40,294 nucleotides of DNA from Protoeuglena noctilucae (lineage: Eukaryota), in NCBI GenBank assembly GCA_958009085.1, contig OY253668.1, positions 2,108,001-2,148,294 of the forward strand, written 5' to 3'. This document shows positions 5,401-40,294 of the stretch, piece by piece; the first letter of the stretch is position 1, and the number at the start of each line of letters is the position of its first letter. Both the position numbers and the translations under genes were made by a program. A model generated the notes under the pieces. The model ran no database searches, was not told the origin of the DNA, and saw nothing but the letters and a program-made list of their open reading frames with translations.

Positions 5401-8400
5401 CGCCCGCGCCGCTTCGCCCTCTGCCGCCCGGGCGCGCTCCTCCGCACCCGCGACGTCCGAGCGCGCCGCCTCCAGAGCCGCAGCAAGCGACCGCGCCTCC
5501 TGCGGCCAGGGGCAGACGCATGGGTCACCTGAGGATGACATTCGATTCCCTGCACAGCCGAGAACGCATCTCTGCCAAAGGGCCCTCGCCTGCTCAGCCT
5601 CCTTCAGGGCCTCCTCCGCCCTCTCCGCGCGCCGCGCCGCCTCCCCCGCCCCCTCCTCCGCCGCTGCCAGACGCGCCCGCAGCGCCTCGGCCCCGGTCCG
5701 CGCCATCTCAGCTGCCTCGGCCGCCGCCGCCCGCAGCCGCGCCGCCTTCTCTGCGTGCGCCTCCTGCGCCTCCGCGAGCCTGCAAAAGCAACTCCCACAG
5801 CTGGATGACCGCTTGCCAGTCCACTCGTGTGAGACCGGCCATAAACATGGGGCTGCCCGTGCCCTGGCAATTGCACATCGCTCCCTCTGCGACGTCGCCA
5901 CGCACCTCTCCCGCAGCTCCTGCGCCTCCTCCTTCGCCGCCTCGAGCATCGCCCGGGCGCCCTCCTCCGCCGCCGCCAGCCGCCCCCCCTCGGCCCGCGC
6001 CCGCTCCAGGGCCTCCTGCAGCTCCCGCACCCGCACCAGCGCGCGACGCATCACCTCCCGCGTCCCCGCGGAACGCTCGTCGCTCGCCTTCGCCGCCTCG
6101 TGCGCCGCGCGGAGGGACGCCTCCACCTGCGCCTTCTCCTCCGCCAGCGCCGCCTGCGCCTTGGCCGTCCGCGCGTCCGCCGCCGCCCTCGCCGCCTCGA
6201 GCTCCTCGCAGGCCGCGCGGAGAGAGACCACCTGGGGAGAGACAGCGGCGGGGTGTCGCGCGCAGGGGCGGCCATGGGACGGGACGGGTGGAACCTGCTG
6301 CGCCTCCTCTCGCCTGCCCCTCCAGCTCCCGCACGGCCAGCCCCGCGCGCTCCCGCTCCCCCTCCACCCTCCGCCGCAGCTCCGCGGCCTCGCCCTCCGC
6401 GTCCGCCGCGCGCCCCGCCATCGACTCGAGCTCCTTCATCAGCTCCCCCACCCGGCCGACCAGGCCCGCCCCCTCCGCACGCGCCGCGGCCAGCTCCGAC
6501 GCCACCTGGGCCCCTGCAGCGCCGACGCAGCCGGGTGCAACAGTCATGAGCACATCCACAGTCACGACTGGCTCAGGCACGCGAGCATAACAGCTGAGCA
6601 GAGTCCCCCGCCCTCACCCTGCTCCCGCGCCCGCTGGGCCTCAGCCCTGGCCTCTTCCACCGCCGCCTTGCATTTGGCCACCTCGTGCTGGTGCGCGTGC
6701 ACCAGGGCCTCCAGGCGGGCGTGGAGCGTGCGGGCCGCCGCCTGGGCCTCGGACAGCTGCAGGGAGCGGGGGGAGCGACATGAGGCGTCGCAGCCATGCA
6801 CGCCCAGACCAACGCGGAGACGCAACGACGGGCACCCGACGGACACGGGCAGCATAGCAAGCGGAACGGTCATTTCCATCGTCGCAGCCAGCCCGCCGCC
6901 CCCACCTGCGCCTCCGCGCTGGCCTTGTCGGCCTTGAGCTCCGCGTGCCGCCCCGCCAGCACCTGAAGCTCGGACTGGCGGCGGCGCAGCTGCGGCCAAG
7001 GATAGCAGGTGGGTTTGTGTTGAACAACGGTTGACGCAACCAGGCAAGGCTCACCCACCAAGGCCCTGCTACCCCTCGCAAGTTCCCCACCTGCTCCGCC
7101 TCCTCGTCCTTCGCCTCCCCCTGCCGCTGCAGGTCCTCCACCAGTCGCTGCAGGCCCAGCACCTGCGGGGAGCAACCCGGACCACGGTCGACAACGTGGC
7201 TGACCCCAGCCTGGCCGACAAACCACCCCGACGCCCGCAGTCGACCCTGTCTACCCCCAGCCCCTCACCTCCTGCTCCAGCGAATCCCTCTCCGCCTGCG
7301 TCTCCTGTACCTCGGCACACAGCGCCCCGTCCCGCGCCTCCAGCTCCGCCACCCGCGCCATGGCCTCCGCCAGGCTCGCCGCCAGCGCCCCGCTCCGGGC
7401 CCCGAGCACGGCCGCCTCCTCCGCCGCACGCTCGGCGCGGGCCCGCGACTGCGACTCGCGCTCGTCCGCGGCCGCAGCGCGCGCCTCGGCCGCCTCCAGG
7501 CGCGACACCGCCTCGGCATGCGCGGCAGACACTGGGAGTGGGGGCGAGGAGCGAGACACCGTGACCCAGACGGCAGACGTAAGCCAGGCAGGCAAATCGC
7601 CTCCCCGCGGCCCGTGCGAGTCTGCCCTCACCGTGCTGCCTGGCTGCCTTGGCCTCCTCGACCGCCTCCTGCAGATCCGCGACCCGGGACTCCAGGACCG
7701 CCACGTCCGACTCCGTCACGCCGGGGCGCACGCTCTGGGGGTGTGACACAGACAGGGGGTGTGGCAAGGGAGGGACGCGGGGCGCGCCATGCAGGTGTAA
7801 CTGTGTGATCGGGTTGCATGGCTCTGCGTCGCAAGGCATAAGGCTGCACCTGCAGTCGGTGGGCCTCCACCTCCCGGGCCAGCGCGGCTGCCCGCGCCTC
7901 CAGGGCCTCGTTGCAGGACTGCAGCGCCTCCCTCTGCGCGGCCAGGTCCGCCAGGGCCGCGTCCACCTCCTCCCGCTGACGGGCTGCGGGGAGGGCGACA
8001 GGCTGTCGCGGGGCGCAGGCTGGGGCATGGCGCAACCGAGTGCGCGTCCTGCAACCACGTTGTGTCTCCTCGCCTGCCTCCCCGGTCCACTCCTCCATGG
8101 CCTTCTGCAGCCGCGCCACCTGCGCCCGCGCCTCGTCCCGCTCCCGGAGCGCGGCGTCCAGCAGGGCCGACGCCCGAGCCGCCTCGTCCCGCGCGTCCTG
8201 AAGTCGGACAAGGAGCGCCAGGGTGTGTGCTGCTCTCCACGTGCAGGGCGATCGCATCACCCCGCTGCCCTCCCACCCCGGCCCTCACCTCCGCCCGGTC
8301 CGCCGCCGCCTCCGCTCCCGCCAGGCACCCCTCGGCACCCTCGGCCTGCCCCCGCGCCGCGTCAATCTGCGCCTGCAGGGCCTTGATCTTCTCGAATGCC

Positions 8401-9656
8401 AGGCGCACCACGCGCTGGGCACCCTCGCCCTTGCTCTGCTGCGCGCGGCTCTGGGACAGCGCTGCCTCCAGCTGGGACGCCTGGGGGTGCAAGGAGAGGC
8501 TCGTGTTGACGATCGACGGCGGCCAGCGATGCGCGGCCAAGAGCCCATTCCCCCACCCCTCCCCACCTTGTCCCTCTCCTCCGTCAGCTGCCTCTCCAGG
8601 TCCGCCACCCTCGCCCGGTGCGCGTCCCGTGCCACACGCTCCCGCTCCAGCGCCGCCGCCAGCCCCGCCAGACGCGCCGCCTCTCCGCGCGCCACATCCG
8701 CCTGGGCCTGCGGATGGCAGATACTCAGGATGGCACATGAGGGGAGTAAACATGCCTTGATAACCTATGAAATGCGCGGGTCCCTGCGCCCAGAACTCCA
8801 ACCTGTCCCCCTCCCCATCTCACCATCAGCTCCCGCGCCCGCACCGTCCCATCCGCGTTCTCCTGCCCCTCCTGCGCCCTCCTCCGCAGCTCCGCCTCCT
8901 TCCCGCGCTCCGCCTCCGCCCGCGCGAGCAGCTGGGTGTGCAGTTCGCGAAGCTGCAGGGGGACAGCACTGCTGCATGATGACGCTCACCCCCGCTGCCG
9001 GCCATCGTCACCGGCGTGACATCGGAATGAGCCCTGCCCCGTCCATTCGCAGTCCTGTCACTGCCAGCCAGTCCTCACCTGCTCGTCGGACCGCCTGGGG
9101 GTGGCGGGGGTGTCCTCGAACAGCTGGTTGCGCTGCACCCGGAACGCCAGGCTGGGGGAGGCCGGGGTTCGGGGGACGGAGCGGGGGGTCGCGGCCAGGC
9201 GGGGGGTCCCGGCGTTGACGGCGCGGCCGCCCAGGGGGGAGAGGGGGCTGCGGCTGACGGGGGTCTTGCCGGACATGCCCAGGGGGGACCTGTGGGGCGG
9301 ACGGACGGGGTGGCTTGGCGCGTGGCTGGGTGAGGGCGGCATAAGCGCATGCGGGGGCAGCAAAAGTCCCTGGCAAAAAACTCACTTGGGCGTGTGCAGC
9401 ACGAGGGGGGTTAGGGCGCGGGGCCCCGGGGTGTTGGTGGCCTCCTGCAGCGGAGTGGCTGCAGGGGCGACAACGGGCGGGGATGGGGTGCCGGCGCTCT
9501 CAGGGACAGCCCATCTGGCAGTGAACGGTCGCGCACATGCAAACTCATTGATTCGATAGCAGCGGCGCGGATGCCGGAGGCGGGAACGGCGGCGCCTGTT
9601 TTGAAAGGCTGTCCACCAGCCGTCGGATCTACCCGCTCAGAAACCGACTCACCCAT
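2465..9656 (-). CDS. Large multi-exon Ala/Glu/Arg-rich coiled-coil protein with an S/T-P-rich N-terminal head
   Basis: A chain of minus-strand exons encodes heptad-like segments (e.g. LQEALERARAEGGRLAAAEEGARAMLEAAKEEAQELRE; RERADLIRQIEELRAQL), flanked by GT/GC donors and C-rich AG acceptors. Start modelled as ATGG (9656-9653), intron 9652-9459, then MATPLQEATNTP. Stop TGA at 2465. Family not identified; interrupted by the assembly gap. Confidence 0.7.
4277..4476. other. Assembly gap (200 N)
   Basis: Run of N bases inside the coiled-coil gene. Confidence 0.99.
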
Positions 9657-10415
9657 GGCTTTGAGATCAGGTCACCGACGCCGAAGCGCAAGTGATCGTG
9701 CGGGCAAACCGCCTGTGTCGGTCGCCTCGCCTGCGTGCGCGGGTTGGGCACTCACGATCAGCATGCTGGGGTCGCCCCCGCGATCCAACCTTGCGCGGGT
9801 GACATTCCAGCTGATGCCCACTGAATCTAAGGCAGCACAGGAGCGCACCGCGGCGTGCGCGGTGCGCGTTGGGGGACGTCGTACGTAGAAAACCGGGCAG
9901 GAGGATCACACACTACACGCGGCCCTCTTCGAAACTGGGGGCTCGACAGCCGGCGCCCCCATGCCGGTCAGCAAGAAATCAGTAGCGAAAATGCAACGCG
10001 ATGCAATGCCAATGCCGAAAGGCCCCAGGCTGCTGGAGAGACCAGCCGAGGGACGATGGCGAGCAAATGCGGGCGTGACCGCAAGCTCCCCGGCACAAAC
10101 AAAGATTGATTAGATCTGTCCCCCTGAGAGTGCCGAAGGCAGAGGTCGACACTCACCACAGCGAGAGCACACTTTCGCGAAGTGCGCTCAGATGCAGCTC
10201 TTCGCCGAACCAAGATGGCGATCTGTTCCGTGAAGTGCCACGCGCCGGCTGGAGAGTTGAGGGGCGGAACGGACGTCAGGGGCGGCGTTCTGGCAGGTTG
10301 TTGTCGGCATCGCCTGTTCACCCGGGCAGCCACTGCCAACCTCCCCGCCATTGCACCGTACGGTCATCGACCTCTCGCTCTTACGAATCCTGCGCCGCAC
10401 TTCTCCATCGCCACC

Positions 10416-11642
10416 ATGTCCGTCCTTCGCGAGGCTGCCCGCACCGCGGCGCCTTCGCTCGCGCGCCACGCGCGGTGCATGACGTCGCTGACCACCTTCA
10501 CGCCCCCCACACTCCCGGACCTCCCTTACGACTACAACGCGCTGGAGCCCGTCATCAGCGCCGAGATCATGACGCTGCACCACAAGAAGCACCACCAGGC
10601 GAGCCCCCGAGGCGCGATGCGGTATTCGCCCCGCGCTTTCTCCCTAGCGCACCTTGTCTACTTGCACGCATCTCCTGGTGCGCACGGGGAAGCGAGAGAT
10701 GCCCCCCCGGCCGACCCCTTGCTGCGGACGTTGGCATAGCGGGACTGGCCCTCCCCTCGACGCGATGCCGTGCGTATCGGGGCCCTCGTGACCAATCCAG
10801 CGAGCTCCGATACACTCTTGCGCCCTGCACGAGCCGCACCGGGCAGCAGCTCCCCGGGAGCGCGCCCGCAGTCGTAATGCAGTGGGCGCACCATGCTTAC
10901 ATGCCACTGCCCCCGCTCGCAGGCCTACATCAACAGCTTCAACGCCGCGATGGACAAGTTCCTGACGGCGGAGGCCAGGGGCGATGTCTCCACGATGATC
11001 TCTCTGGAGGCGGCGCTGCGGGTGAGGTCCCACGCTTCGCCACACGGCCTGGCACGGGCTGTGGCATAGCACCCCTCTCGCTGGCTGCCTTGACAGGGAT
11101 GCACCTAGTGCCTTCCTGTTTCCGTTCCAGTTCAACGGCGGCGGCCACGTCAACCACTCCATCTTCTGGACCAACCTCACGCCCCCCAGCAACTACAAGG
11201 AGCCGTCGGGGGAGGTGGCCCAGATGATCGGTAAGCACTGGGGGTCCGTGGACAAGTTCGTGCAGGACTTCAACGCGCGCGCCGCGGGCGTCCAGGGGTC
11301 CGGGTGGTGCTGGCTGGGGTACGACAAGGCCATGGGGCGGCTGGTGATCGAGACGACGCCCAACCAGGACCCCCTGGTCACCAAGGCGAGAGGAGTGGAC
11401 GGCATTCACAATGCCAGGCTGGCTGCTCTCATCAGCTCCGTGGCGCCTCCACCACCCACCCCTTCCCTCACCGCCCCTCGTGCCTCGGCTCGCAGGGCCT
11501 GATCCCCCTGCTGGGCGTGGATGTGTGGGAGCACGCGTACTACCTGCAGTACCGCAACGTCCGCCCCGACTACCTGAAGGAGATCTGGAAGGTGGTGAAC
11601 TGGGCCAACGTCAACGAGCGCCTGGCTGCGGCCACCAAGTGA
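10416..11642 (+). CDS. SOD2: Mitochondrial Mn superoxide dismutase, 4 exons (10416-10598, 10923-11021, 11131-11385, 11496-11642)
   Basis: Motifs [47 protein letters not shown] and [11 protein letters not shown], plus an Arg/Ala/Ser-rich presequence. Introns 1 and 3 have GC donors. Confidence 0.96.
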
Positions 11643-11782: not shown

Positions 11783-13236
11783 TCATCCCTGCCCCCGCGC
11801 CCTCTTGGCCAATGGCCCAGGGCTCCCTCCGCCCTCTGCCCCCTCGTCTCCCCTCCCGCGCCTCGTGGCCCCACTGCCACGCGCCCCCGGACCGGACACC
11901 ACCACCACCACGTCATCATCATCCTCCGTCTGCCCCCTGCCCGCCACCCCTCCCTCGTCCTTCTGCATCCCCCGCTCTCCTCCTCCCACGTCTAACACCC
12001 CGCTCTGCCCCCCTTCTCCCTTAACTGCCTTGCCCGCTTCCCTTACGCCCTCCTCCTCCTTCACTGCCCCACCCACATCCCTCACGCCCCCCTCCTCCTT
12101 CACTGCCTCACCCGCCTCTCCCCGCAACGTGGCAACCGGCGATGCCTCCCCCGCCGCCCCACCCTTCCTCGCATGCGCCGCGAACATGGCCGCCACCGTC
12201 TTGTTCTTGCTCTTGAGTGGCGACACGCACTGCGGCCCCTCCAGCTCCCCCTGCTTGTTCAGCTGGGTCGTCACCCGGTGCCACGCCAGCCGCGGCGCTG
12301 CCTCGGGCGCCGACAGACGCCCCAGGGCCTTGGGGTCCAGGCGTGACGCCAGCCACGCATCGCAGTCACCCGGCCTGGCCAGCATCACCGGCATGCGGTC
12401 GTGCAGGAACGCGACGTGCTTGCTGGCCTCCGTCGTCAAGACTGCGCGAAGGGCAAAGGTGCCAGGTGCTGCTGCCGTGCCACTGCCGCCCATGCACAGC
12501 GCACGCAACCACCCATGCACCCCCGCGCCTCCCCTCACTCGTGCATGTGCACAGGGGCTCCCCTCCCTCGCCCGTCCAAGTGTCCCACAGCCCCGCGAGC
12601 CACAGCACGGGCGCCTTGCCCCCCTCGACCGACGCGCCCTCGGGGTAGATGTAGTACGGCTGGCGGACCCTCTTGCTCCCCAGCTCTGCCTCGGACCTCC
12701 ACTCGTAGAAGCCATTGCTGAGGACAATGCAGCGGTGCGTGGACAGCAGCCGACCGAAGACGGGCTTGGCGTCTACCGTCTCGGAGCGGGCGTTGAACAT
12801 GCGGTAGAAGTCGGGGCGCTCCCCTGGCTTGGTGAAGCTGCGGCAGAGGGCAGGGGTTGGTGGGGCATGCAGTGCTGGCAGTGCTCGTCGCCATGAGGGG
12901 GCAGGCTACTGTTGTTCTGGTGCTGCTCACACCTGGGCACCAGACCCCATCGCATGGACTGGAGGCATCGCTGGCCGTCCTCAACCCTCACGACGGGCAC
13001 CCAGCCCCCCGGGCCCACGTTGTAACTCTCTGCGCTTCCACAGAGGTGGAACAAGAACGGATGGAGCCACACGAGTTGCATGGATGAGAGGAAAACCAGC
13101 TTGTACACTCAACGGGAAAACTCGTCTCATCAGCTTTACCTCGATATCGTTCCGAGTCTCGCCACCTCGACGGATCGACGCCAGCGGCCTCGCAGGCCTC
13201 GGCGTGGCTCAGCGACACGCGCATACGCCCGCACAT
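11783..13236 (-). CDS. HMCES: SRAP-domain abasic-site processing protein (HMCES/YedK family)
   Basis: N-terminal MCGR (catalytic Cys2), SYNVGPG, MRWGLVP, MFNARSET, GFYEW, AGLWD and LHDRMP across 4 exons, followed by a low-complexity C-terminal tail. Confidence 0.93.
11995..12110 (-). repeat. ~3 copies of a 39-bp (13-aa) coding tandem repeat in the HMCES tail
   Basis: ACTGCC recurs at 12024, 12063 and 12102 (period 39); peptide AVKEEGGVRDVGG / AVKEEEGVREAGK / AVKGEGG. Confidence 0.7.
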
Positions 13237-13559: not shown

Positions 13560-14714
13560 ATGTCTCAAAACACGATCGGCATGGCCAACTACTTGCGCAG
13601 GGTGTTCCCGGGGTTCCTCAGGAAGCTGGAAGTGAGGCGCGCCTTGCCCGGCGGCCATGTCGACTGCGTCGCGTCCTATCGTAACGTTTTCATGAGTATA
13701 TCGTCTCCCTCTTTCTGCCTGTGTGGCTCTTTTGAGATGGCGGCCGCTGTCCGTCGAGCACGCGGCAGCGAACGTGGCGGGCTCCATCGCAAGGCCCCCC
13801 TGCCCGGTTAGAGCATCATGGGCCGTCCCGGGGCGCATCACGCAACTCTATTTTGACTCTCTTCTGACTCTACGCTTTCCAGCGCTGGTTTGCGGGTGGA
13901 TCGCGGCGCGGCGAGCTTGTGCATCATTCCCCACCCCCTCCTCCTCGCCCAGGTCACCAAGCTCGGCGAGGTGACGGCGGAGGTCAAGTCGCCGGAGATG
14001 TTCCCGGCCTTCCTGACGGCCCTGCGCGACGACGCCAACCTGCAGTTCCGGACCTTCATCGACATGACGGGCGTGGACTGGCCGCACCGGGAGCGGCGCT
14101 TCGACGTCGTCGTCCACCTCCTTTCCACCTTTAACTCGCAGCGCATCTGGGTCAAGACCGACGCGGGCGAGTGGGCGCCCGGGGGCACGCACTCGGGAGT
14201 CCCTCCGGCGCCCCGTTCGCGCCCGCGACGCGTGCGCCTCCCTCCCCCGCAGACGAGGTCAGCCCCGTCCCTAGCGTCACTTCCATTTTCCCCGCCGCAT
14301 TGTGGGCAGAGCGCGAGACCTACGACATGTTTGGCGTACGCTTCACGGGCAACCCCGACCTGCGCCGCATCCTGACGGACTACGGCTTCTCCGGGCATCC
14401 CCTTCGCAAGGACTTCCCTCTCTCGGGCTACACCGAGGTGAGGAGCGGCGGAGCAGACGCGGGCGTGGGTCCAGGGTCCCGCACTGTGCCGATCGACGGC
14501 GTGCCCCATCCGTTCCCGGCCCTCCCAGGTCCGCTATGACGACAGTGAGAAGCGCGTGGTCATCGAGCCGCTGGAGCTGACGCAGGCCTACCGCCAGTTC
14601 ATGCTCTCGTCGCCGTGGGAAACGCGCATGGACGACAAGGTCCGCGTGGAGGCGGAGCCGGGGGCAGCGGGGGGAGCGGCCGCGCCGGCGGCGGAGGGGG
14701 CGAAGAAACCTTGA
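13560..14714 (+). CDS. NDUFS3: NADH:ubiquinone oxidoreductase 30 kDa subunit (Nad9/NDUFS3), 4 exons (13560-13631, 13953-14166, 14253-14437, 14529-14714)
   Basis: Motifs [78 protein letters not shown] and SPWE. Intron 2 is GC-AG. Start codon less certain. Confidence 0.93.
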
Positions 14715-25800: not shown

Positions 25801-27024
25801 CGTGCCCCACACCTGTGAGTGCGTTGAAGGCGCTCTGGATGCGGATCATCTGCGCGGCCGCCTCCTCGCGGCTGTCCGGGTTGCGGTCCGGGTGGTGCCT
25901 GAGCGCCAGGACGCGGAAGACGCGCTTGATGTCTGCCTCGGTGGCGGACCGGTCCACGCCGAGGATCTCGTAGGGGTCGAATCCGACGTGGACGGCCGTG
26001 TGGGCGTAGACGAAGTAGACCAGGAAGGCCAGGAGGCACCACCCGGCCACCAGGGCCACGTTTCCCAGGGAAAACAGAGAGGGACGGCGGGCGGCCTCTG
26101 CGCAGAGCGGGGTGGGGGGTCCCGGGGTTCGTGAGGCGGATGGGCGGGCAGAGACACTGCGCCGGCGCTCGCGAGAAGGCCAGCGGGACGAGGCGCAGAG
26201 CATCCCCTCCATGCTCCTTGCTGCCATGCGCCTCACCCTTCCCCTGCGCGTCGGCCTTGTCCGTCTCGAAGGCCCTCATGTCGACCCCACGCAGCGCCTT
26301 CTTGGGGGCGGCGCGGCTGGGCCTCTCCGGCTCATCCATGTCCCACGGGGCGCGCCATCCCATGACGCGGAAGAGCGTCACCGGCACGAGCGCGCATCCC
26401 AGCACCGTCAGCAGGAAGGTCGCGAATTGGGTCGTCGACCCCTGCGCGGGCGAGGGGGGCGGTCCTCCGCGGTCGCCGCCGCAGCAGGGCGATCGCGGCA
26501 ATGGCGAACGCGATCGTGGAGGAACCGATCACGGCGTCAGGGAACGGCACCGTGGCCGGCGCGGCGCGGCTAAAGCCAGTTGCACTTCCCGAGGGTACCG
26601 GCACAGCCATGGGTGGTAAGCGCGCGAAGGGCGGTTGCACAGCTCGGAGAAAGGTGCGCTGGACTACGGGCTGTGCATCCGCGGGCAAGGGAGGCACAGG
26701 CCGGCCTAGAAGGTGCGGGCCGCGGGTGCAGGGCGTCGCAGCGGACCAGCGGGAACGCAAGGGCCCCGCGGGCGCGCGGCCACTCCATGCAAGTTGTAAG
26801 CCCGTCATCTCGAACAACGAGGGGCAAGAGATTCGCAAAACAGGCCGCGATGGCGGATCCGAAACGCAGAACGCGGCCTTTGGCGCCGCGCTTGTCGCAA
26901 GGTGAACGGTCGCCCCCGCAGCTGGGAAGCCCAATCTGCCCGCCCCCGTGCAAAGCCCATGGACGCCAACGGCATCAACGATGCGCCTGCGGTCAGCGCG
27001 CACCTCCATATCCACGTCCGGCAT
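22851..27024 (-). CDS. SEC63: ER translocon J-domain protein Sec63/ERdj2
   Basis: N-terminus [27 protein letters not shown] (intron 27003-26442), J-domain FDPYEILGV...[28 protein letters not shown], Sec63/Brl-like region ([14 protein letters not shown]) and an acidic C-terminal tail. Confidence 0.92.
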
Positions 27025-27469
27025 CTTAGATCAAGGCGTTGCGCGAGCGACAGAGTCGCGAGGTTCCCGCGGCAGAGCCGCCGTTCCAGAGGCCCGGGAG
27101 GCAACCCCTGCTGCAATTCTCCAAGCAACGTGGCTGGACAGGATCTGCGAGACGCTCAAGCGGACGCTCCCTAAGATCTCGGGACCCAACAGGCGATGCG
27201 GTCGACGTCGCTGCGCCAGAGCTCCTTCACGCATCTGGCTCTGTGTGCTGGAGAAGGCCGTCAACTGCGTTGTCGCAGACGCGGCCTGTTGCACCGACAC
27301 GATTTCACTGGCGCGGCCGTCCTTCGTCAAACGCCGAGACAAACACGGTTCCAGCGCTGTCTCGGTGCAGAGTAAGCATCGGCGCTGGCGTGTTGTCCAT
27401 CGCTGGACTGTCAAGAGATTTCTTAACCGAGGCGTGCACACTCGCCTGTTGAGCGGCGCGCAGGTCGCC

Positions 27470-29766
27470 ATGACGCTCGCGAAATTGTTGGCGGAGCAGC
27501 GCGGGATGCGCTTGGTGCCCATCCACGCTGGCGCCTGCCTGCGAGCCCTGCCGCATCATCCGTTCGGCGCGCGCTTTGCCAGCCGCGTCGCCCCGCGCGC
27601 GGGGCCTGACAGCGGCGTGCTGGAAAAGTACGAGGCTGTCATTGGAATCGAGACGCACGTCCAGCTCCAGACAGCGACGAAGGCATTCTGCTCCTGTCCC
27701 AACGAGGTGTGTTCCGACAGGAGACCTTCTCGACCCGCCGCGCGCCTCGCCGCTCTGCCAGGGCCACGCCTCGTTCTTCCCGCAGTACGGTGCGGAGGTC
27801 AACCGGCACGTCTGCCCCGTCTGCATGGGCCTCCCGGGCGCGCTCCCGGTGCTCAACCGTGCCGCCACCACCCTCGCCGTGCGTCTGGGCCTGGCGCTGG
27901 GCAGCTCCATCGCTTCGTCCTCCAAGTTCGACCGCAAGCACTACTTCTACCCCGACCTGCCCAAGGGGTACCAGATCAGCCAGTACGACGAGCCCGTGTG
28001 CTCGGGGGGGCGCGTGGAGGTGCTGCTGCCGGGGGGAGGGCGCAAACGGGTCGGCATCACGCGGGCGCACCTGGAGGAGGACGCGGGCAAGATAGTCCAC
28101 GGGGGAGCGGACTCTCTGAGCGGGTCCAAGCATTCCAACGCCGACTACAACCGAGCGGGGGTGCCGCTGCTGGAGGCGAGGGGCGGGGTGGGGCGCGTGG
28201 ATGGGAGCGTAGAGTGAGATGCAGCGTTGCGTCTGATGCGTTGGGACCCTTGACTGGCGCAGATCGTGTCGGAGCCGGACTTGCGTTCCGGCCAGGAGGC
28301 GGCAGAATACGGGGCGGAGCTGCGCCGCATCGTGAGGGCGCTGGGGATCAGCAACGGCAACATGCAGGAGGGGTCCATGCGATGCGACGTCAACGTCTCG
28401 GGTGAGCCCTGGACAGGATGCATGACAGCGGGGTGCGCGTGGCCCGCGTGACGTGGGGGCCGAGGCCACCTCGTCCGGCTCTCGCCCGCAGTGCGCCCGC
28501 GGGGTCAGTCGGCCTTCGGGACCAAGGTGGAGATCAAGAACATGAACTCGTTCAGCGCCATGCAGAAGGCCATTGAGTTTGAGGTGGCACGGCAGGTGGG
28601 GCTGATTGAGGGGGGGCGCGGGGAGGAGATTGTGCAGGAGACGCGACTGTGGGACGAGGGGAGGCTCGAAACGTACACGATGAGGAAGAAGGAGGGGCTG
28701 GCGGACTACAGGTGACGGCGCACGCAGGGGATGCATGGGGGTTGACCGTCGATGGCAGTCGCGGCGTGGCAGTGGATGACGCCCTGCCCTCCCATCCCTT
28801 GTGTGGTGCCCTGTCACATTCTCACGGCCACCAGCACGCCGCGTCGCCCCAGGTACTTCCCCGAGCCAGACCTGCCGCCCCTGACCATCACCGCGGAGGA
28901 GATCAAAGCGGTCCAGGCCTCCATGGGGGAGCTGCCCGACGCACAGCGCGAGCGGTACGTGGCCATGGGTGAGTGCCGCACGGCCAGAGGCGGGGCAGCC
29001 AGGCATGCAGTCGGGGCTCAGAGGCGGCAACAATGCGCCCCCCTGGTCCTGTCCCCACTCGCCCTGCGCGCCATCTGGACCCCAGGGCTCGCTCCCGGCG
29101 ACGTGGCCTTCCTGGTGGACGACATGGACGCCGCCGCCTACCTGGACGCGTCGGTCGCGGCGGGGGCGGCCCCCAAGGCCGCCGCCAACTGGGTGATGGG
29201 GGACCTCGCCGCCCACTGCAAAGCCAGCAAGGTCGCTTTCGCTGACCTCGCGCTGACGCCGCCGCAGCTGGCGGAGCTGGTGACTCTGATCGAGCAGGAC
29301 GTCATTTCGGGGAAGATCGCGAAGCAGGTGGGCGCCGAGGGGGGTCAAGTGCCACGGGACGATGCCCGGTGGGTGCCCAGAACCTCACTCCTTGCATACC
29401 CGCAGATCCTGCCCTCCCTGCTGACGGGCGCTGCGGGAAGCGCGGGGGGTGTGCGGAAGCTGGTGGAGGCGTCGGGGCTGGTGCAGCAGAGCGACCCGGA
29501 GGCGATCCGCGCGCTGGTGCGCAAAGTCCTCCTCGACAGCCCCAAGGAGGTGGAGCAGTACAGGGGGGGAAAGACCAAGCTTATGGTGAGTCAGTGTAGA
29601 GCACAGCATGCAGCGTGCTGCAGCCGCACGCGTCACGTTAGGGCATGCGGCTCGCCGGTCGCAGGGCTTCTTCCAAGGCCAGTGCATGAAGGCGTCGGGC
29701 GGCAAGGTGAACCCGAAGATGCTCGCCGAGATCCTCAAGCCCATGCTGGATGGAACGGAGGAGTAG
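27470..29766 (+). CDS. gatB: Glutamyl-tRNA(Gln) amidotransferase subunit B, organelle-targeted, 8 exons
   Basis: Motifs [90 protein letters not shown] and [14 protein letters not shown], with an N-terminal transit-peptide-like extension. Confidence 0.96.
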
Positions 29767-29909
29767 AGGAACTGGCGTGCACGTCGTGCGGCACACCCTG
29801 CCTCCTAGTCCCTGGGGCACCGCGCCGTCCCTCCTTCGCTCTATAGCAGGCGTGCTCGGTCGGCGTGGCACTTTTGAATCCTGTGACGGCCGCGGCGCTC
29901 CCTGCGCAC

Positions 29910-29914
29910 TGTAA
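29910..29914 (+). terminator. Putative chlorophyte-type polyadenylation signal TGTAA for gatB
   Basis: TGTAA ~145 nt after the gatB stop; UGUAA is the established Chlamydomonas/chlorophyte poly(A) signal. Confidence 0.5.
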
Positions 29915-29953
29915 TTTTGCTTCCGGCTCTGCGGTCGCGCCTCGGGGGAGGGG

Positions 29954-31142
29954 ATGGAGCAAGGGGGGGAGGAAGCCACGCGGCTTTTTCGCGTGCGGAG
30001 GACGATCTGGCAGGCGCGCACTGGAGCGGGGGGCGTGGGCTGTGCAGACGCTTTGACGAAGTTTACGGGGTCTCGCGTCGCGCGCCGGCACCGTGCTGCA
30101 GCCCCCTTTCAGCGGACGCGCTGTCCTTGCATGAAGACAGCAGCGCAGTTGTCCGCCGCCGCTGGCAGTGGCCTCACTTGCCGCAGTCGGGGCTCGCCAT
30201 GCGCCCCGCGGCACGACACGCCCGCACCGTCGCGCGCGTGCAGATGCTCCGTGACCGTGGGTACTTGGTGGGCCAGAAGGACCTCAACACGACGTTGGAG
30301 GAGTTTCGGGCGACGTTCGGGGACCATCCGGACCGCGCGCTGTTGTCGATCCAGACGAGCCTCCTGTCGAACGAGGAGGAGCAGGCGAGGGCGCCCGCGG
30401 CCCCAGCGAGGACCAATTCGTGCCATGAATGTCTGCGGGGCGCGTGGTAGCGTGGGGCACTTCGATGACGTCCCCCTGCATCCTGCATCATGCGCAGGTG
30501 CTGGTCTACTTCCCTTCCGAGGCCAAAGTGACGTTTCCGACGCTTCAAAGGGTTGTCCAGCTCATGAGGCAGCACAGCATCAGCCTCGCCATTCTGGTGA
30601 GCAGTGCGGAGGCCTGCGCGCGACCACCATGGGATGGTGTTGCTTGCCGATTCGGCAGACCTTCGTGCGCGTCGCCCACAGCGAGATGGCTCGAAAGCGT
30701 CTCGCGCCCTCAGGTGGCCGCTGAGCCCCTCTCGGGCCACACGGCACGTGCGGTGCAGGAGGGCCTGGTGGAGGGGTTTCGTTTCGAGTTCTTCTTGGAG
30801 AAGGAGCTGTTGGTGAACATCACCGAGCACGACCTGGTGCCCAAGCACACTCCCATGACGGAGGAGGAAAAGGAGGCGCTGTTGGAGCGGTACAAGGTGG
30901 GGTGACGCCCGCGCTGGGTGTTGGGTGCAGATAGGCCGTGCTGTTCCCACCCGTGCCTGCCCTGCGGACGCGAGGAGCAGCAAGGGAACGGCGCGCCGCA
31001 GGTCAAGGAGTCCCAGCTGCCGCGCATTCGCAAGGACGACCCGGTCGCCCGCTACCTGGGGCTGCGGCGTGGCCAGGTGGTGCGCATCGTGCGCAAGTCG
31101 GAGACGGCGGGGAGGTATGTGACGTACCGCATATGCCTGTGA
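29954..31142 (+). CDS. RPB5: DNA-directed RNA polymerases I/II/III shared subunit RPB5, 5 exons
   Basis: [34 protein letters not shown] and [41 protein letters not shown]. Introns 1 and 2 have GC donors. Confidence 0.96.
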
Positions 31143-31313
31143 CGGGTGCGGGGCAAGACGTGCGCTCTGGGCGTGCAGGGGGGGGGGGGGGGAAGCACCT
31201 AGCAAGAGCCCGCAGCCAGCGCGGGACGCGCGGGAGAGTGGCATTAAATTTTAAACGGGTGTCTTTGCGCTGCCTCGTCACCCCTTCTGGCGCAGACGCG
31301 ACCTCGCCCGGCC

Positions 31314-31318
31314 TGTAA
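31314..31318 (+). terminator. Putative polyadenylation signal TGTAA for RPB5
   Basis: TGTAA ~170 nt after the RPB5 stop. Confidence 0.5.
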
Positions 31319-31548
31319 CCGCCTGGCACCTCTGGCACCGTTTTTCGGCCCCGTCTCGACATCTGGGGCCCCGCGCGCCCGTTCGCGGATACATGGACGC
31401 GCAAAAAAGTAGGAGCGTTGGTCGCGAACGATGCGCGACGCTCCAGTGCATCGCCAAGCCTGGGCCCTGAGAGGATCGTTCCGAGATGGCCGCGTCGCCG
31501 CAGTCGCCACCCTGGTGCGAAGATAATACCAATTCTGTTCATCCCACC

Positions 31549-34217
31549 ATGTCGGACGAGACGGATGCGCCGCGGTTCTCGCTGGGCAAGAGGTGAGGCC
31601 TCCCCGCGCCGTGGGTGCTCCACGGGCCGCGCTAGCTGGACCTCGATCCTAAATTGCTCGTTCCGAAACGCCGGCGAGGACTGCGCCCGGCGCGCCATGC
31701 CTGGAACGCGGCTCGGGCCCGCCCCAAACGCGGCGCACGCTCCTGGCCCGTGAGCTATCGGGGCCGGCGTGATGCGGGCGCAGCGTATCGAATGATGATC
31801 GTGGCGGCCATTTGCGTCCCGGCGCGTGATCGCTGGCCCCTCGCGACACTTTTGGGGACTCGGGGCTCGTTGGGGCCCACTTGTTCGCTATCCGCCGGGA
31901 ATTCGGCACTTGTCGTTCCGACTTTCAAATCCTGGCTGCATGGCGCCTGTTTGACCCCCACGCGGCTGTTCTCCGGGCCTGGTCAACCCACACTGTCCTA
32001 CCGAAGTGTGAGGGGGCATCGACGCGTTCCGAGCACGTTTCGGCGCCATAGACCGCCGCTGCGTGCTGTTGGGAGGGAATTATATTGTCGGGGGGATGGC
32101 GGGCCGGGCATCGCTTGCGAATTGGCAGGAATATCCACCATCTGTCGCACGAGCATGGGGGCACCCTCCTCGCACCCACCCAGGGACCTTAATTCCGCCG
32201 CATGCTGCTCCTGTGTGTTCACCGTCTGCGCCCGTCCATCCTGCCTGCAGGATATGGCAGGGCGAGTCGTGCCAGGTCTTCTTGGGGGCGGACGCGGCGA
32301 CGGGCGCCCCCGTGGCCGTCAAACACTACCCCCGCGACCGCCTCGACCCGACCACGGAAGAGTACGTGCTGCAAGAAATCTCCCTCCACGCGTCGCTCGG
32401 TGAGGCCCCGGGGGGACCGCGGCGGGAAAGAGGGGCTGCCCTCGCGTGCCGCGTGGGCCCTCTGACCAGACCCCTCCTGCCCCGCCCAGACCACCCTCAC
32501 ATTCTCCCCGTCCTGGCCGCCATGCGCAACGACTCGGGCATCTCCGTGGTGCTCCCCTTCGCCTCCAACGGCGACCTCTACGAGCGCTTCGCGGACCTCG
32601 ACCACTCGGAGCGCACCATCGCGCGCCATGTCCTGGCGCCCCTCCTCAGCGCCCTCGCCTACGTCCACGCCCGCGGCATCGTGCACCGCGACATCAAGCT
32701 CGAGAACGTCCTCCTCGACGGCCGCGGGCGTGTCCTCCTCGCCGACTTTGGGTTCGCCCTCGACCTGCAACGCCGCCGGGCACTCACGCACGTCGGCACC
32801 CGCGTCGCCATGGCGCCCGAGGTGCTCCTGGGAGACCCGGCCGCGGGGCCCGACGCGCCCCTCCGCTGCGAGGTGCCCCGGGACGCGCGGCCCTCCTACG
32901 GAACGGCCGCCGACATCTGGGCCCTCGGGGTCCTCGCCTTCGAGCTTCTCACCGGCCGGGTACCCTTCGCCGGCAGCGACGACCGCGGCATCGCGCGCGC
33001 CATCTTCGCCAGCCACGCCGGCCTCCGCGCCGGCGTCTCCCCCCTGGCGCTCGACTTTCTCCGCCGGTGCCTCACCTTCGACGCCAGGGAACGCCCCACC
33101 GGTGAGCAGCGATGCCCTGCGACCACGTGGCTGCTGCCCGCCTGCCCGCCCGTCTCATGCGCAAGCCCCCCCTCCCGCGCCCAGCTCGCGATCTCCTGTC
33201 CCACCCCCTCCTCGTGGCGCACTGCGACCCCACGCGCCTGGCAGCCCTCGTGGATGCCGTCGCCGACAGCCGCCCCCTCGTCGACAACCGTCTCTTGACG
33301 ACTCGCCTCGAGTCCCGCTCCCAAGCCGCCGAGGGCCCGTCCGAATCGGGCAAGACCTTCAGCCCCGCTGCGAGGCGAGACATGCCAGTTGTTCGGCCTC
33401 GCGAGCTCGACCCTGCCCTGAGCCCGGCCCCATCATCATGTTACCCATCCCTGCCCCTCCCCTCCCCCGCAGCATCATGGGCGGGACCGGGTTCCCCTCC
33501 CCCACGCGCCCCCGGCACCTGGCCGTGCAGGCCCCCAGCCTCGCCGGCGACCCCACCGGCGCTGCCCGGCCCGGGGTTCGGGTCCCTCGCCTCGACCTCC
33601 CCCCGGTCGTCCCCGTCGGCAACAAGCCCACGCGCCACAGCTTCGATGGCCCTGCCCCAGCCACCCGCGGAAGATGTCCGCCGACTGCGCACGCGCCGCT
33701 GCGGGGGCGTGCGTGCCGCCCCCCGACCCCTCGGACGGCCAGGCAAGCCTCGCCTGCCCCTGCGCGCGTGCCGGCGGTCGATCTGCGACGATGCGTGACG
33801 GTAGAGCGCGCTGAGCGTGACGTGCCCTGCCCCGTCCCCGGAACTCTGCAGGGCCTCGGCACCGTGGTCAGCCTCGCCTACGCGGGCGCAGAGACCAACG
33901 ACAGGCGGGGCAGTCGCTGGGGCGGGATGCCGGGGGGCATGTCGGCCGCTTGCGGCGTCAAGGGCAGCGCCGACAACCTCGCCACGTGCCGCCCAGAGGG
34001 TGAGGCCGGTGCATGGTGCCACCACCACATGGATGGCCTGCCCTGGCCTCAGCCGCTGACTGACTCCCCTGGACCGTCAATCCCTGCAACAGTCGCAGGC
34101 CTACCGGCGCTCTCGTTGACTCGGCCCACGGAGTCGGGCCGCGCCTCCCGCACAAACAAGCACGACCCCCCTGGCCGGGTACGGGGGAGGGCCGCGCGCC
34201 TCCTCCACTGGTGGTGA
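31549..34217 (+). CDS. Aurora-like Ser/Thr protein kinase with a Pro/Arg-rich C-terminal tail
   Basis: Exon 1 31549-31592 (MSDETDAPRFSLGKR), intron 31593-32250, then VAVK, QEISLHASLDHPHI, HRDIKLENVLL, LADFG, MAPE and DIWALGVLAFELLTGRVPF. The 3' end is uncertain (34217 or a further small exon near 34320). Confidence 0.88.
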
Positions 34218-35296: not shown

Positions 35297-36206
35297 TCAC
35301 TCGCGGATCCTCGTCTCCGCCTTGGTCACCTCCCTCTGGACCGTCTGCGGGGGCGCACGGACCACGTTGTCTCTGCCCCCTCTCTCGGCGACCCCTGGCC
35401 CGACAGTCGCGCTGTTTGGCAGCTGAATTGACAGGGTCTGAGAGGCAGCGTCTCGTACGTGAATTCCAGCTCACCTTCTCCCCCTCGGCCTTCTTCTCCG
35501 CCTTCCCCTTCGGCTTGAAGTTGGGGTCGAATGGCAGGTCCTTGGACCTGCAGAGGCGATGACCGGAGGGTCGGGGTCTCCAGCCCAGCCCAGTGACGAC
35601 GCTGAGCAGGACGACCGCTGCCCCGATCACGTCGCCGCATGTGGGCCCCCCTGGCCCTGCTCACCGGAAGATGACGATGTGAACTTGGCCTACGAGGAGG
35701 TGGATGTAGGAGCGCGTGTCGTGCGTGATGCAGCAGGCGAAGTGGTACCCCGCAATGCAGTGGTACACGCCCTCGAGCGCCGTCTGCGTCGGAAAGCGGT
35801 CGTCGAAAGCCTTCTTCACGTGCTCTGCGGGGAGGGCAGAGTGAATGTGGGTCAGTGCGCTTCGGGGAGGAGCGCGGCGAGTCTCTGCCCCTGCGCAACC
35901 ACCAAGATGGGGTCCCAGGCCCACCTGCAATGGCTTTCAGCTGCTTGTGCTTCGTCACGGCCTCCTCCGCAATCTGGATTGCCGCCTCCTGGACCTCCTG
36001 CGCCATGTACGACTGCAGGACCTGCGCAGAGATGGCACCGCGGACGGTTCGGGCCAGCACATGCGACGCTGAGGGAGCCGGGCAAGCTCCAGGCTGCGGC
36101 TGCGGGTCCCGTCGCCAACTGCCCGCTTCCAGCGCTGTCTTGCCTTTGCCTCCACCTCCTTCGGCACCGCCTCCTGCGTTCCCGGCTCGGGATCCGCGGA
36201 CATCAT
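35297..36206 (-). CDS. Dynein light chain type 1 (LC8-family) protein with N- and C-terminal extensions
   Basis: EVEAK|VLQSYMAQEVQEAAIQIAEEAVTKHKQLKAIAEHVKKAFDDRF...VYHCIAGYHFACCITHDTRSYIHLLVGQVHIVIFRS follows the LC8 pattern. The last exon is tentative. Confidence 0.8.
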
Positions 36207-36891: not shown

Positions 36892-38573
36892 ATGACGGGA
36901 GCGTCCCCATCCGCCCTCCTCGCCGCCTTCCCGGGCGGAGTGTACACGGCGAGGATCGCGAATGCAGCCCAAACTCGGCCTGTCGAGGCCATAACTCCTT
37001 CACGACCACGAAGTTCGCGAAATGTTGCTTACTCCCGCAGGCGGGCGTCGTGGAGCGCCCCATTCCCGGCGTCACCCTGCAGTTGCGGCACGAAGCCCTC
37101 CACGTGGCGCGATTGGCGCAGGGCGTCGCTCTCCACGCCGCTGCGTTTCAACAGCTGCTGGCGGCCGCGGTCCTGGATTGCGATGGCGGCGATGCCTCGC
37201 TCACGGGGCTCCTGTGCCCGGGGGAGGAGGCGGTTATGGACGGGGCCGTGACGCGGGCGCTGGAAGAAGCAAGGGTGGGAGAAGGCTCTGAGTGGACGGC
37301 ACGGGCGCTGGCTGCGACGGGGGCGGCTCTGCGGGCGGAGGTGCTTGCGGCGCTGTCGGAGGCGGTGCAAGCGTCTGAGGGCTCTGCCGCGTGGGAGACG
37401 GGGGCAGAGGCCATGGCGGTGGTGGTGGTGGGGCCGGAGGGGACCTCGAGGCCGTGCTCGTGTCCCTGCCGCGTCAGGGAGGGGGCGGTCGTGTGTGCGC
37501 TCGTCTGCCCGCTCCCCGCACCCTCTGCTGGGCTGGGGCAGCCGCCCTGGGCCGCGGTCCGCGAGGGCCGGCGCAGGGACGGGCCGCCGCTCTCCAAGGT
37601 GGGCTGCGACGCGCGCCTGGCCCCGGGCTGCTCCCTGCCTCGGTCCTGGTTGGGGGGGTTGCCCCCGCGACCACCGACCCAGCTCCTTGCTCTGTTGCCA
37701 CCGCGCAGTACTGCGCATGGGTGACCGAGCGCGCCGCGATCACCACGGGCTTGGGACCGGGGTGCGTGGATGTGGTGATGGCGGCGCGGGACGGGGAGGA
37801 TGGGGCGCGGGTGCTGGTTGAGGGAGCGGTCACATCGCTGTTTGTGGTGGCGGACGCACGAGCCGCGAGGGTGCAGGCGAGAGGGATGGGGCAGGGATGC
37901 GGCAGCGGCGTGGACGGCGTCGGGCGAGCTGAATTATTGCAGCCTGTGTCCGCGCTGTGTGCAGGCAGAGTCCGTGGCAGAGAGGGGTGCAGAGCCGGAC
38001 AGGGTGCGAAGAGCGCGGGCATGGGCGAGGGCGCTGGAGGCGGCGCTGCCAGTCTCACCGACAGACTGGTCGGATGCGGTAAGTGGGGTCGCTGCGGCTG
38101 CGACACAGCCAGCGGTGCTCTTTGGCACAGCCGTGTGCCAGCACAGGACACCGATGCAATCGTCCAACAATGTGTCCTCCTCCACAGGGTGACCCTCCCG
38201 TAGTGCTGTGCACGGCCCCTCTTTCATTGGGAGCACTGCCCGGCATTGCGCGTGTTCGGGCGCTTCACGCTGCGGCAGACGTGGCCCTGCCAGTCCTGCT
38301 GGCCGCCCCGCCTGCCGAGCTGTGGGGTTGCCGGGAGGTGTTCCTGTGCAACGCCGTCCGGTGGGTGCGCCGGCTCCTCTACCTGGTCATGTCAGGCATG
38401 GCACGTCCCCTTCACTGACGCCCCTTGTTCCCAGCCCACCCGCGTGCAGGGGCATGCTTCCGTTGGCCGCGTTGCGGGACGGTGGCGAGGGCGGGGCTCT
38501 GCTCTGGGCCGCCCGCGCAGAGGATGGCTGCCCCGGCCCCGTCACCCGGGCCCTGGCCGCAAGGCTGGTGTGA
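36892..38573 (+). CDS. Class IV PLP-dependent aminotransferase-like protein (D-amino-acid aminotransferase / ADC-lyase fold), 6 exons
   Basis: GGVYT, HVARL, SK|YCAWVTER, EGAVTSLFVV, ALPGIAR, EVFLCNAVRG and PGPVT match the fold-type IV motif order. GC donors at 36949 and 37877. Confidence 0.78.
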
Positions 38574-38851: not shown

Positions 38852-39901
38852 TCACAAAAGCGGGCGCACCGCGGCCGGCTTGGGCTGCGGAGCGGGCTTC
38901 GCCGGTGCCGCATGGGGCTGCAGGGCGGCTGCGGCGGCTGCGGCCGCGACGGTGGGGTGAGCCGCGGCCTCCTCCCCTTGAACCGTGCGCACGGTGACGA
39001 CGCCCACTGCGGGGCGGGCATGGCGATGCGCGGCGGTGGGTGGGGGTCGAACAGAGCAGGCCACCGTTCCACGACCGTCGCGCGGGGTGCCTACCCAGCC
39101 ACTCACCGTTCTGTGTGGGCTTGACGCCCCACTCCGATAGCCTCGCCATGACGAACCCCACCAGCTTGTCCCGCGCGGCGCTCCCCATGCCCTTGACGTG
39201 CTCGTTGAAGGCCCACTCATAGTACACGGCTAGCCGCATTTTGAGGCCGTTCTCCGGGCACTGCTGCTTGCGCACCGACACGCCGCCCCCGAAGCTGGAG
39301 GGGTCCTGGGGGCGCGGGCAGAGGAGGCGATGGGCGAGACCTGCCTGGCCGGGGCACCACCCGCCCCTCCCCGCCCCCACCTGCGCCATTGCCCTGGCAG
39401 GACCGCATCTGCGCCCCGAAGCCCCCCTCACTGACCCCCCTCGCTGCCCGCACCTTGGCAGTGAATTCCTGCAGCGCCGCGAGCAGTCGGTCGAAGATGG
39501 CCGGGGGCGTGTCCACGTCCACCCAGATGGCGAACTCGTCCCACTTGTTGCCGCTGATGCTGCAGTTGATGACCACCTCCGAGAAGAGCACCACGTTGGG
39601 CCAGAAGTAGAGCTGCTGCTGGGAGTCCTGGAGCACTTGGGACGAGAGGAGTGGCGCGCGGTGAGCGGGGGGCACGCATCGGGCGGGCGAACCCACCCAC
39701 CGATGCCGTCCATGGGCCCAGGCATTGCAGTCGTGGCACGTGCACGCGCGTCCCACCGGTGCTGAAGAGCCGCATCTCCTTGACCTTAAACCACTGGCCT
39801 CTCACGATGATCGAGTCCTCAACGTCGAAGGGGTGGACCGTGAAGTGGACCAGCATGATCTCGAAGATGCGCTGTAAGGTGCCACCAAAGACGAACGTGA
39901 A
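38852..39901 (-). CDS. MscS-like (MSL) mechanosensitive channel, 3' half only; 5' part cut off by the telomere
   Basis: FTFVFGGTLQRIFEIMLVHFTVHPFDVED, VKEMRLFSTVL, WPNVVLFSEVVINCSIS and the C-terminal cage region, over 4 intact exons. Immediately upstream in frame is telomere-derived TAA CCC. Confidence 0.85.
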
Positions 39902-40294
39902 GGGTTAGGGTAAGGTAAGGTTAGGTTTTAGGTAGGGTTAGGCAGGTTTAGGTAGTTTTTTTTTGGGTAGGTTTTAGGTTTAGGGTTAGGTAGTTTTTTT
40001 GGTAGGGTCAGGCAGTTTTAGGGTTAGGGTCAGGCTCAGGGGTTAGGGTTAGATTAGTTTTTGGTTAGGTTAGGGTTAGGTTAGGGTTAGGGTAGGGTTA
40101 GGGTTAGGGTTAGGGTAAGGGTTAGGGTTAGGGTTAGGGTAGGGTTAGGGTAGGGTTAGGGTTAGGGTTAGGGTTAGGGTTAGGGTTAGGGTTAGGGTTA
40201 GGGTTAGGGTTAGGGTTAGGGTTAGGGTTAGGGTTAGGGTTAGGGTTAGGGTTAGGGTTAGGGTTAGGGTTAGGGTTAGGGTTAGGGTTAGGGT
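39901..40294 (+). repeat. Telomeric array (TTAGGG)n; degenerate 39901-~40155, perfect to the end of the window
   Basis: The G-rich strand runs 5'->3' toward the end of the sequence, as expected for a chromosome terminus. Confidence 0.96.

Follow-up and report, generated by a model that had tools for sequence, protein, structure and literature searches.

The right-hand end of the window, the whole stretch of 40,294 bp that was analysed (about 62-75% GC), is probably a genuine chromosome terminus, formed when a break in the pore-helix codons of an MSL10/FLYC1-type channel gene copy left a centromere-side stump that was then capped with a telomere. A (TTAGGG)n array occupies positions 39902..40294 of the plus strand and reaches the window end. 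Its G-rich strand points 5′ to 3′ towards that end, the orientation of a right-hand chromosome terminus. Directly beside it, on the minus strand, lies the 3′ part of a gene that is cut off where the repeats begin.

The telomere is fused directly to an MscS-like coding exon, as a sequence-only reading of this DNA had claimed. Across the join, the minus strand reads ...CCCTAACCC|TTCACGTTCGTCTTTGGT... and then TTC ACG TTC GTC TTT GGT from 39901. Zero bases separate the last certainly gene-derived base (39901) from the first base in telomere register (39902), and because there is no base to hold them, a splice acceptor, promoter or start codon cannot lie between the two, a point that the same reading had made. 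The GG at 39902-39903 can be assigned to the gene or the telomere side alike, and the plus-strand string GTGAAGGGTTAGGG is located at 39897-39910. The AGG(G) microhomology to the telomerase template that the sequence-only reading suggested would depend on the codon lost at the break. The residue preceding the break is Ala in eight of the 10 aligned relatives. If the lost codon was GCC, the GG at 39902-39903 would be gene-derived and AGG would be common to gene and repeat; the bases shared with the telomere repeat beyond A39901 would be two with GCC and none with GCG (range 0-2). The unique sequence is error-free, in frame and conserved up to the very join, and the repeats are joined directly to unique sequence with the G-strand outward, as would be expected of a neotelomere.

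The truncated exon 1 (39757..39901, minus strand) encodes a peptide of 48 residues (39901-39758), in which the pore helix reaches its C-terminal end and the beta-domain begins. A search of PDB with this peptide matched only MSL10/FLYC1 chains (five of five, E 2.1e-6 to 7.7e-4), and the alignments cover residues 571-617 of 762 in FLYC1 and 552-598 of 734 in AtMSL10, with F3 of the remnant at F553 and G6 at G556. The location of the break in the MSL pore helix, also proposed earlier, is confirmed by these alignments. In AtMSL10, the hydrophobic gate is made up of V549 and F553, and the pore helix TM6 has its kink at G556 (PMC10560256). Combined with the exon 1 alignment, the gate and kink positions given in that source place the break between the equivalents of V549 and F553, so that just two residues of the remnant precede the gate phenylalanine. 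Telomere stands in place of the V549 equivalent and all else of TM6a, and the pore helix is reduced to its C-terminal end.

Broader searches agree on the family. With exon 1 as the HMMER query, 46 of 1.84 billion representatives, which are clustered at 50% identity, were hit at E<=1e-3 and none at E<=1e-10, the best identity being 56%. When 11 relatives of at least 600 aa were compared with the window by tblastn, exon 1 was matched by 10 (E 2e-12 to 7e-6), and five of the 11 also matched exon 2 collinearly; the remaining protein (P0046) gave no exon 1 match (E 0.77). PF00924 is present in all six relatives scanned and starts about 7 residues past the break column, and the spliced remnant aligns gap-free through this stretch. 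The four exons scanned singly gave no Pfam hit at E<=1 (0/4), since intron 1 splits the beta-domain (PF00924, MS_channel_2nd). The cytoplasmic C-terminal domain that follows the beta-domain is present, and the remnant is collinear with nine full-length relatives.

Several further searches returned no close relative. The sole PDB hit of exon 2 was unrelated (E 0.57), and a word-based homologue search with exon 1 among proteins of 85-2000 aa gave one candidate, which was not significant. Three versions of the exon 1 ORF, looked up exactly, were absent from the protein collection. A scan of JGI metagenomes with exon 1 peptides produced 232 pattern matches, none of which was confirmed, and a second metagenome scan with an alignment as query recovered 80 loci, the best with 53-59% identity over exon 1 and none a close relative. 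No homologue of a neighbouring ORF was found at these 80 MSL loci at E<=1e-4, and none is syntenic.

The remnant resembles AtMSL10 and DmMSL10 (FLYC1) (PDB 8jwe, 8tdj, 7n5d) in having the gate Phe, kink Gly, TM6b, beta-domain and C-terminal domain in the same order and in keeping the conserved FVFG...HPFDV motifs. It differs from them in what precedes the break. Upstream of the break column, 10 full-length relatives have a further 446-782 residues, of which the window contains nothing: the N-terminal parts of 11 full-length relatives had no tblastn match anywhere in the 40 kb (other hits E>=0.12). The N-terminal helices TM1-TM5 are absent from the window. Unlike AtMSL10 and FLYC1, the remnant lacks the N-terminal domain, TM1-TM5 and TM6a; without these and a promoter it cannot make a channel.

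In the splice model, the remnant comprises 681 nt (226 codons plus TGA), and all three introns are of the GT...AG type. Intron 1 (39636..39756, minus strand throughout, 121 nt) leads to exon 2 (39454..39635), which completes the beta-domain and opens the C-terminal domain. Intron 2 (39306..39453, 148 nt) is followed by exon 3 (39107..39305), part of the C-terminal cytoplasmic domain. The closest sequence found (L001) is an intronless full-length MSL homologue at 3249-5243 of a metagenome contig of 71.5% GC. Residues 3-171 of the remnant, the last of them in exon 3, align to it with 44% identity (E 4e-44), gap-free at the first two exon junctions, and this collinearity with an intronless gene verifies introns 1 and 2. 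The two sequences also share the unusual motifs HF..HPFDVED, DEFA[IL]WVD and ENGLK[MI]RLAVY. Putative intron 3 (39007..39106, 100 nt, GTGAGT..CAG) comes from the splice model, and putative exon 4 (38852..39006), an Ala/Pro-rich unconserved tail with TGA at 38854-38852, is a plausible model only. The earlier statement that the rest of the gene is intact is supported, with two junctions verified by L001 and with intron 3 and exon 4 as putative parts. An in-frame ATG had also been pointed out, and it is found at 39856-39854 (39854..39856, minus strand), as codon 16 and the first ATG of the remnant. The product predicted from it has 211 aa and no complete transmembrane helix.

Judged by its sequence, the remnant looks free of visible decay. 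It keeps 23 of the 24 columns that are invariant or nearly so in the family, where the relatives themselves depart at 0-7. The sole departure is an Arg to Ile replacement in the N-x-S-R-S motif of exon 2 (39511-39525, minus strand). All 10 relatives have Arg at this position, which sets the remnant apart from the MSL10/FLYC1 family, and the Ile codon is at least two base changes away from any Arg codon. The remnant has a GC3 of 0.894, compared with 0.75-0.945 in neighbouring genes with Pfam support, while its own introns have a GC content of 0.73-0.78. Open frames are weak evidence of recency, because they come cheaply at such a GC content: the window, at 68% GC, contains 229 stop-free stretches of at least 110 aa.

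The telomere array gives a different impression of age. Tandem Repeats Finder reports a period-6 TTAGGG repeat at 40018-40294 (47.2 copies, 91% matches, score 440), and degenerate telomere-like units, split by eye at G-runs, extend back from 40018 to 39902. Canonical TTAGGG accounts for 36 of the 68 G-terminated units in the whole array. Its proximal part (39902..40150, plus strand) consists of TTAGG, TAGGG, TAAGG, TCAGG, TTTAGG(G) and TTTTAGG(G) units, interrupted by runs of T (T9 at 39956-39964, T7 at 39994-40000, T5 at 40058-40062). These units vary mainly in the number of T and G, as if through template slippage or as relic repeat types. In 40-nt bins counted from the junction, the coverage by perfect units is 0.15, 0.05 and 0.2, then 0.35, 0.55, 0.8 and 0.8, and it equals 1.0 only from about 40182. 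Repeat quality rises outward: T(n)AGG(G) variants fill approximately the 250 bp nearest the junction and give way gradually to perfect repeats. The suffix at 40151..40294 is perfectly periodic TTAGGG over 144 nt. An assembler of short reads with k=141 was considered as the source of this length, but the figures are near and not exact, and nothing was concluded from them.

Repeats newly added by telomerase should be canonical, but in this array canonical repeats do not set in at the junction. The cut had been called recent in the sequence-only reading; the array argues against this, since its roughly 250 proximal bp are degenerate, with a coverage of 0.05-0.2 in the first 120 bp, like the base of an established telomere. 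The degenerate array sits oddly beside the undecayed remnant. Because the base of the array is degenerate, an event within recent culture generations is unlikely, and the breaking and capping were probably not very recent. Degeneracy that begins at the junction is easier to reconcile with an old event, or with capture of a telomere, than with simple healing in recent times. The end may be old enough for the array base to have diversified, the telomerase or telomere replication of this organism may be sloppy and give variant repeats, or the cap may be a copy of another end.

The most probable course of events would begin with a double-strand break within the pore-helix codons of an MSL10/FLYC1-type gene. 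About three quarters of the gene, comprising the N-terminus, TM1-TM5 and the first half of TM6, would have been lost with the distal fragment, and the centromere-proximal stump would then have acquired a telomere. The plus-strand 3′ end at the break, ...GTGAAGG, is G-rich, and telomerase may have primed on it. Such an event would leave behind a promoter-less 3′ remnant with the last quarter of the gene, namely TM6b, the beta-domain and the C-terminal cytoplasmic domain. This remnant is presumably silent and is most likely a non-functional relic.

Comparable events have been described in other organisms. In mutation-accumulation lines of Chlamydomonas reinhardtii, two terminal deletions were healed by de novo telomere addition (PMC9977147), and chromosome healing has also been reported after terminal deletions in Plasmodium falciparum, yeast and humans (PMC5550746, PMC10055226, PMC3136441). 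As at the Chlamydomonas ends described in that account, the repeats here join unique, in this case genic, sequence directly and without a subtelomere, and, as at healed ends in the accounts cited, a truncated gene stands at the new end with a G-rich 3′ end at the join. In contrast to the Chlamydomonas ends, the array is degenerate from the first repeat on, and the event is read from an assembly and not from a tracked lineage, with no intact ancestral allele for comparison. Chromosome healing, as proposed in the first reading, is plausible and partly supported: the direct join in a conserved exon and a second assembly speak for it, while the degenerate array speaks against its recency.

Variant repeats at the base of an array also have parallels. 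The Arabidopsis telomere atlas describes variant zones adjoining canonical arrays (PMC11406999), and mixed TTTAGGG/TTAGGG telomeres are reported from Dunaliellinia and Stephanosphaeria, both of them chlamydomonadalean clades (PMC3318450). The proximal T(n)AGG(G) zone, which includes TTTAGGG and TTTTAGGG and grades into a canonical array, resembles the established telomeres with variant bases described in these sources. Unlike the Arabidopsis-type zones as the atlas presents them, it begins at a break in coding sequence and not in a non-coding subtelomere. If compared among the ends of this genome, the variant zone could tell healing by telomerase from capture of a telomere and give a rough age. 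Healed or re-capped terminal truncations are well known, and the end described here adds one more without revealing a new mechanism; it provides such a truncation at nucleotide resolution in a GC-rich, intron-bearing microbial eukaryote, with housekeeping genes nearby and no subtelomere.

Telomere capture, in which the broken end would have invaded or joined another end and copied its old, variant-rich base by break-induced replication or end joining, is unlikely, although its outcome would be an array that looks old beside a freshly cut gene. Degenerate repeats begin at the junction itself and improve to perfect ones, yet the remnant keeps its 23 conserved residues, splice sites and codon bias, as this explanation would have it, and the GGG/TTAGGG at the junction could act as microhomology. 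Variant bases, however, can also arise in place by slippage and mutation; variation of this kind beside canonical arrays is reported for Arabidopsis (PMC11406999).

It is rather improbable that the remnant is a telomere-capped partial duplicate, with an intact MSL copy, and possibly copies of the neighbouring genes, elsewhere in the genome and nothing lost. A recent duplication or gene conversion would explain the lack of decay. Three negative results tell weakly against it. A word search with exon 3 among proteins of 117-2000 aa found only the cluster of read-through ORFs from the window itself (one of 25 candidates), none of the 46 HMMER hits of exon 1 exceeds 56% identity, and no subtelomeric or segmental repeats occur in the window. 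The searches carry little weight because the organism is apparently unannotated and the representatives were clustered at 50% identity.

Contig ends are error-prone, and a chimeric read or false join could have placed telomere repeats on an internal gene. Such an assembly artefact is very unlikely, since a deposited protein records the join from a contig other than the one studied here. On the plus strand, an antisense ORF of 85 aa with a GTG start (39651..39908) crosses the junction with its last codons, GTG AAG GGT TAG. BLASTP recovered the same 85-aa protein (P0052) with 99% identity, the sole mismatch being the GTG start, recorded as M. P0052 ends in ...NVKG on the stop codon that the junction creates; its one contig measures 2,382 bp and is necessarily different from that of the window. 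The join is thus reproduced in a second assembly, which may share raw data with the first, and the chimeric-read alternative is weakened accordingly. The correct terminal orientation of the array and the error-free, in-frame sequence adjoining it also argue against an artefact. Gene calling has left other traces at this locus: P0001-P0005 (38820-39725, minus strand) are ORFs in the style of prokaryotic gene callers, which run exons and introns together in one frame. The remnant read-through ORF P0001 and its four variants in start or one residue have 13 contig occurrences in ENA assemblies, and one of the variants carries a single His to Pro difference.

That the array is interstitial, an internalised old end or fusion scar within which the contig merely stops, is highly improbable: the window does end inside repeats, the perfect suffix is only 144 nt long and short-read assemblers halt in perfect repeats after about one k-mer, but the quality improves outward to perfect, the signature of a terminus maintained by telomerase, whereas interstitial tracts usually decay throughout. 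The array is probably terminal.

A role for the remnant itself has a comparably slight chance. It could be transcribed inward from the variant telomere base and translated from ATG 39856 as a soluble 211-aa protein of the MscS cytoplasmic domain, kept by selection. Such selection would explain the old-looking telomere base beside 23 of 24 conserved residues, intact splice sites and codon bias, and seems hardly likely.

The probable chromosome end lies among ordinary genes. Pfam was run on 150 of the 154 stop-free stretches of at least 150 aa (251-739, 7254-7715, 10191-10643 and 12538-12987, all on the minus strand, were omitted), and 71 shorter stretches were scanned between 33.3 and 38.9 kb. 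Matches in the window include ankyrin, Fe/Mn SOD, SRAP, the complex I 30-kDa subunit, amine oxidase and DnaJ, followed towards the end by GatB (27.0-29.8 kb), Rpb5 (29.9-30.9 kb) and a protein kinase (32.0-33.3 kb). The relevant matches among the shorter stretches are a dynein light chain (LC8; 35664-35936, minus strand, E 7e-12) and the last neighbouring gene (38083-38415, plus strand), which is convergent with the remnant and is represented by one exon-sized ORF with a weak match to class IV aminotransferases (E 4.3e-4; its 20.6 bits fall short of the 28.5 that Pfam sets as cut-off). Ordinary genes (GatB, Rpb5, the kinase and dynein LC8) thus come within 10 kb of the end. A repeat search over the 40 kb found seven direct families, made up of the telomere array and of GC-rich repeats of low complexity at 1.9-11.9 kb; it found no inverted pairs, no repeat involving the terminal unique DNA and no subtelomeric families. 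The lack of repeats in the terminal unique DNA, together with the ordinary genes near the end, indicates that a subtelomeric repeat zone is absent.

Other features of the window deserve mention. Single-copy-type housekeeping genes (GatB and Rpb5), with the protein kinase, lie at 26906-33295, approximately 7-13 kb from the telomere. The region 2600-8700, read mainly on the minus strand, is of GC-rich low complexity with many imperfect direct repeats of 47-62 nt (D2-D6) and no Pfam hit, and is possibly a long Ala/Glu/Arg-rich coiled-coil gene. At 13857-14372 (plus strand) there is an exon for the complex I 30-kDa subunit (NDUFS3/nad9-type), whose surroundings look nuclear and contain introns. 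It may be a taxonomic hint, although a chlorophycean would be no more than a guess from a nuclear NDUFS3 and from TTAGGG-type algae. Many algae and plants carry this gene in the mitochondrion, but it is nuclear in Chlamydomonadales, animals and fungi.
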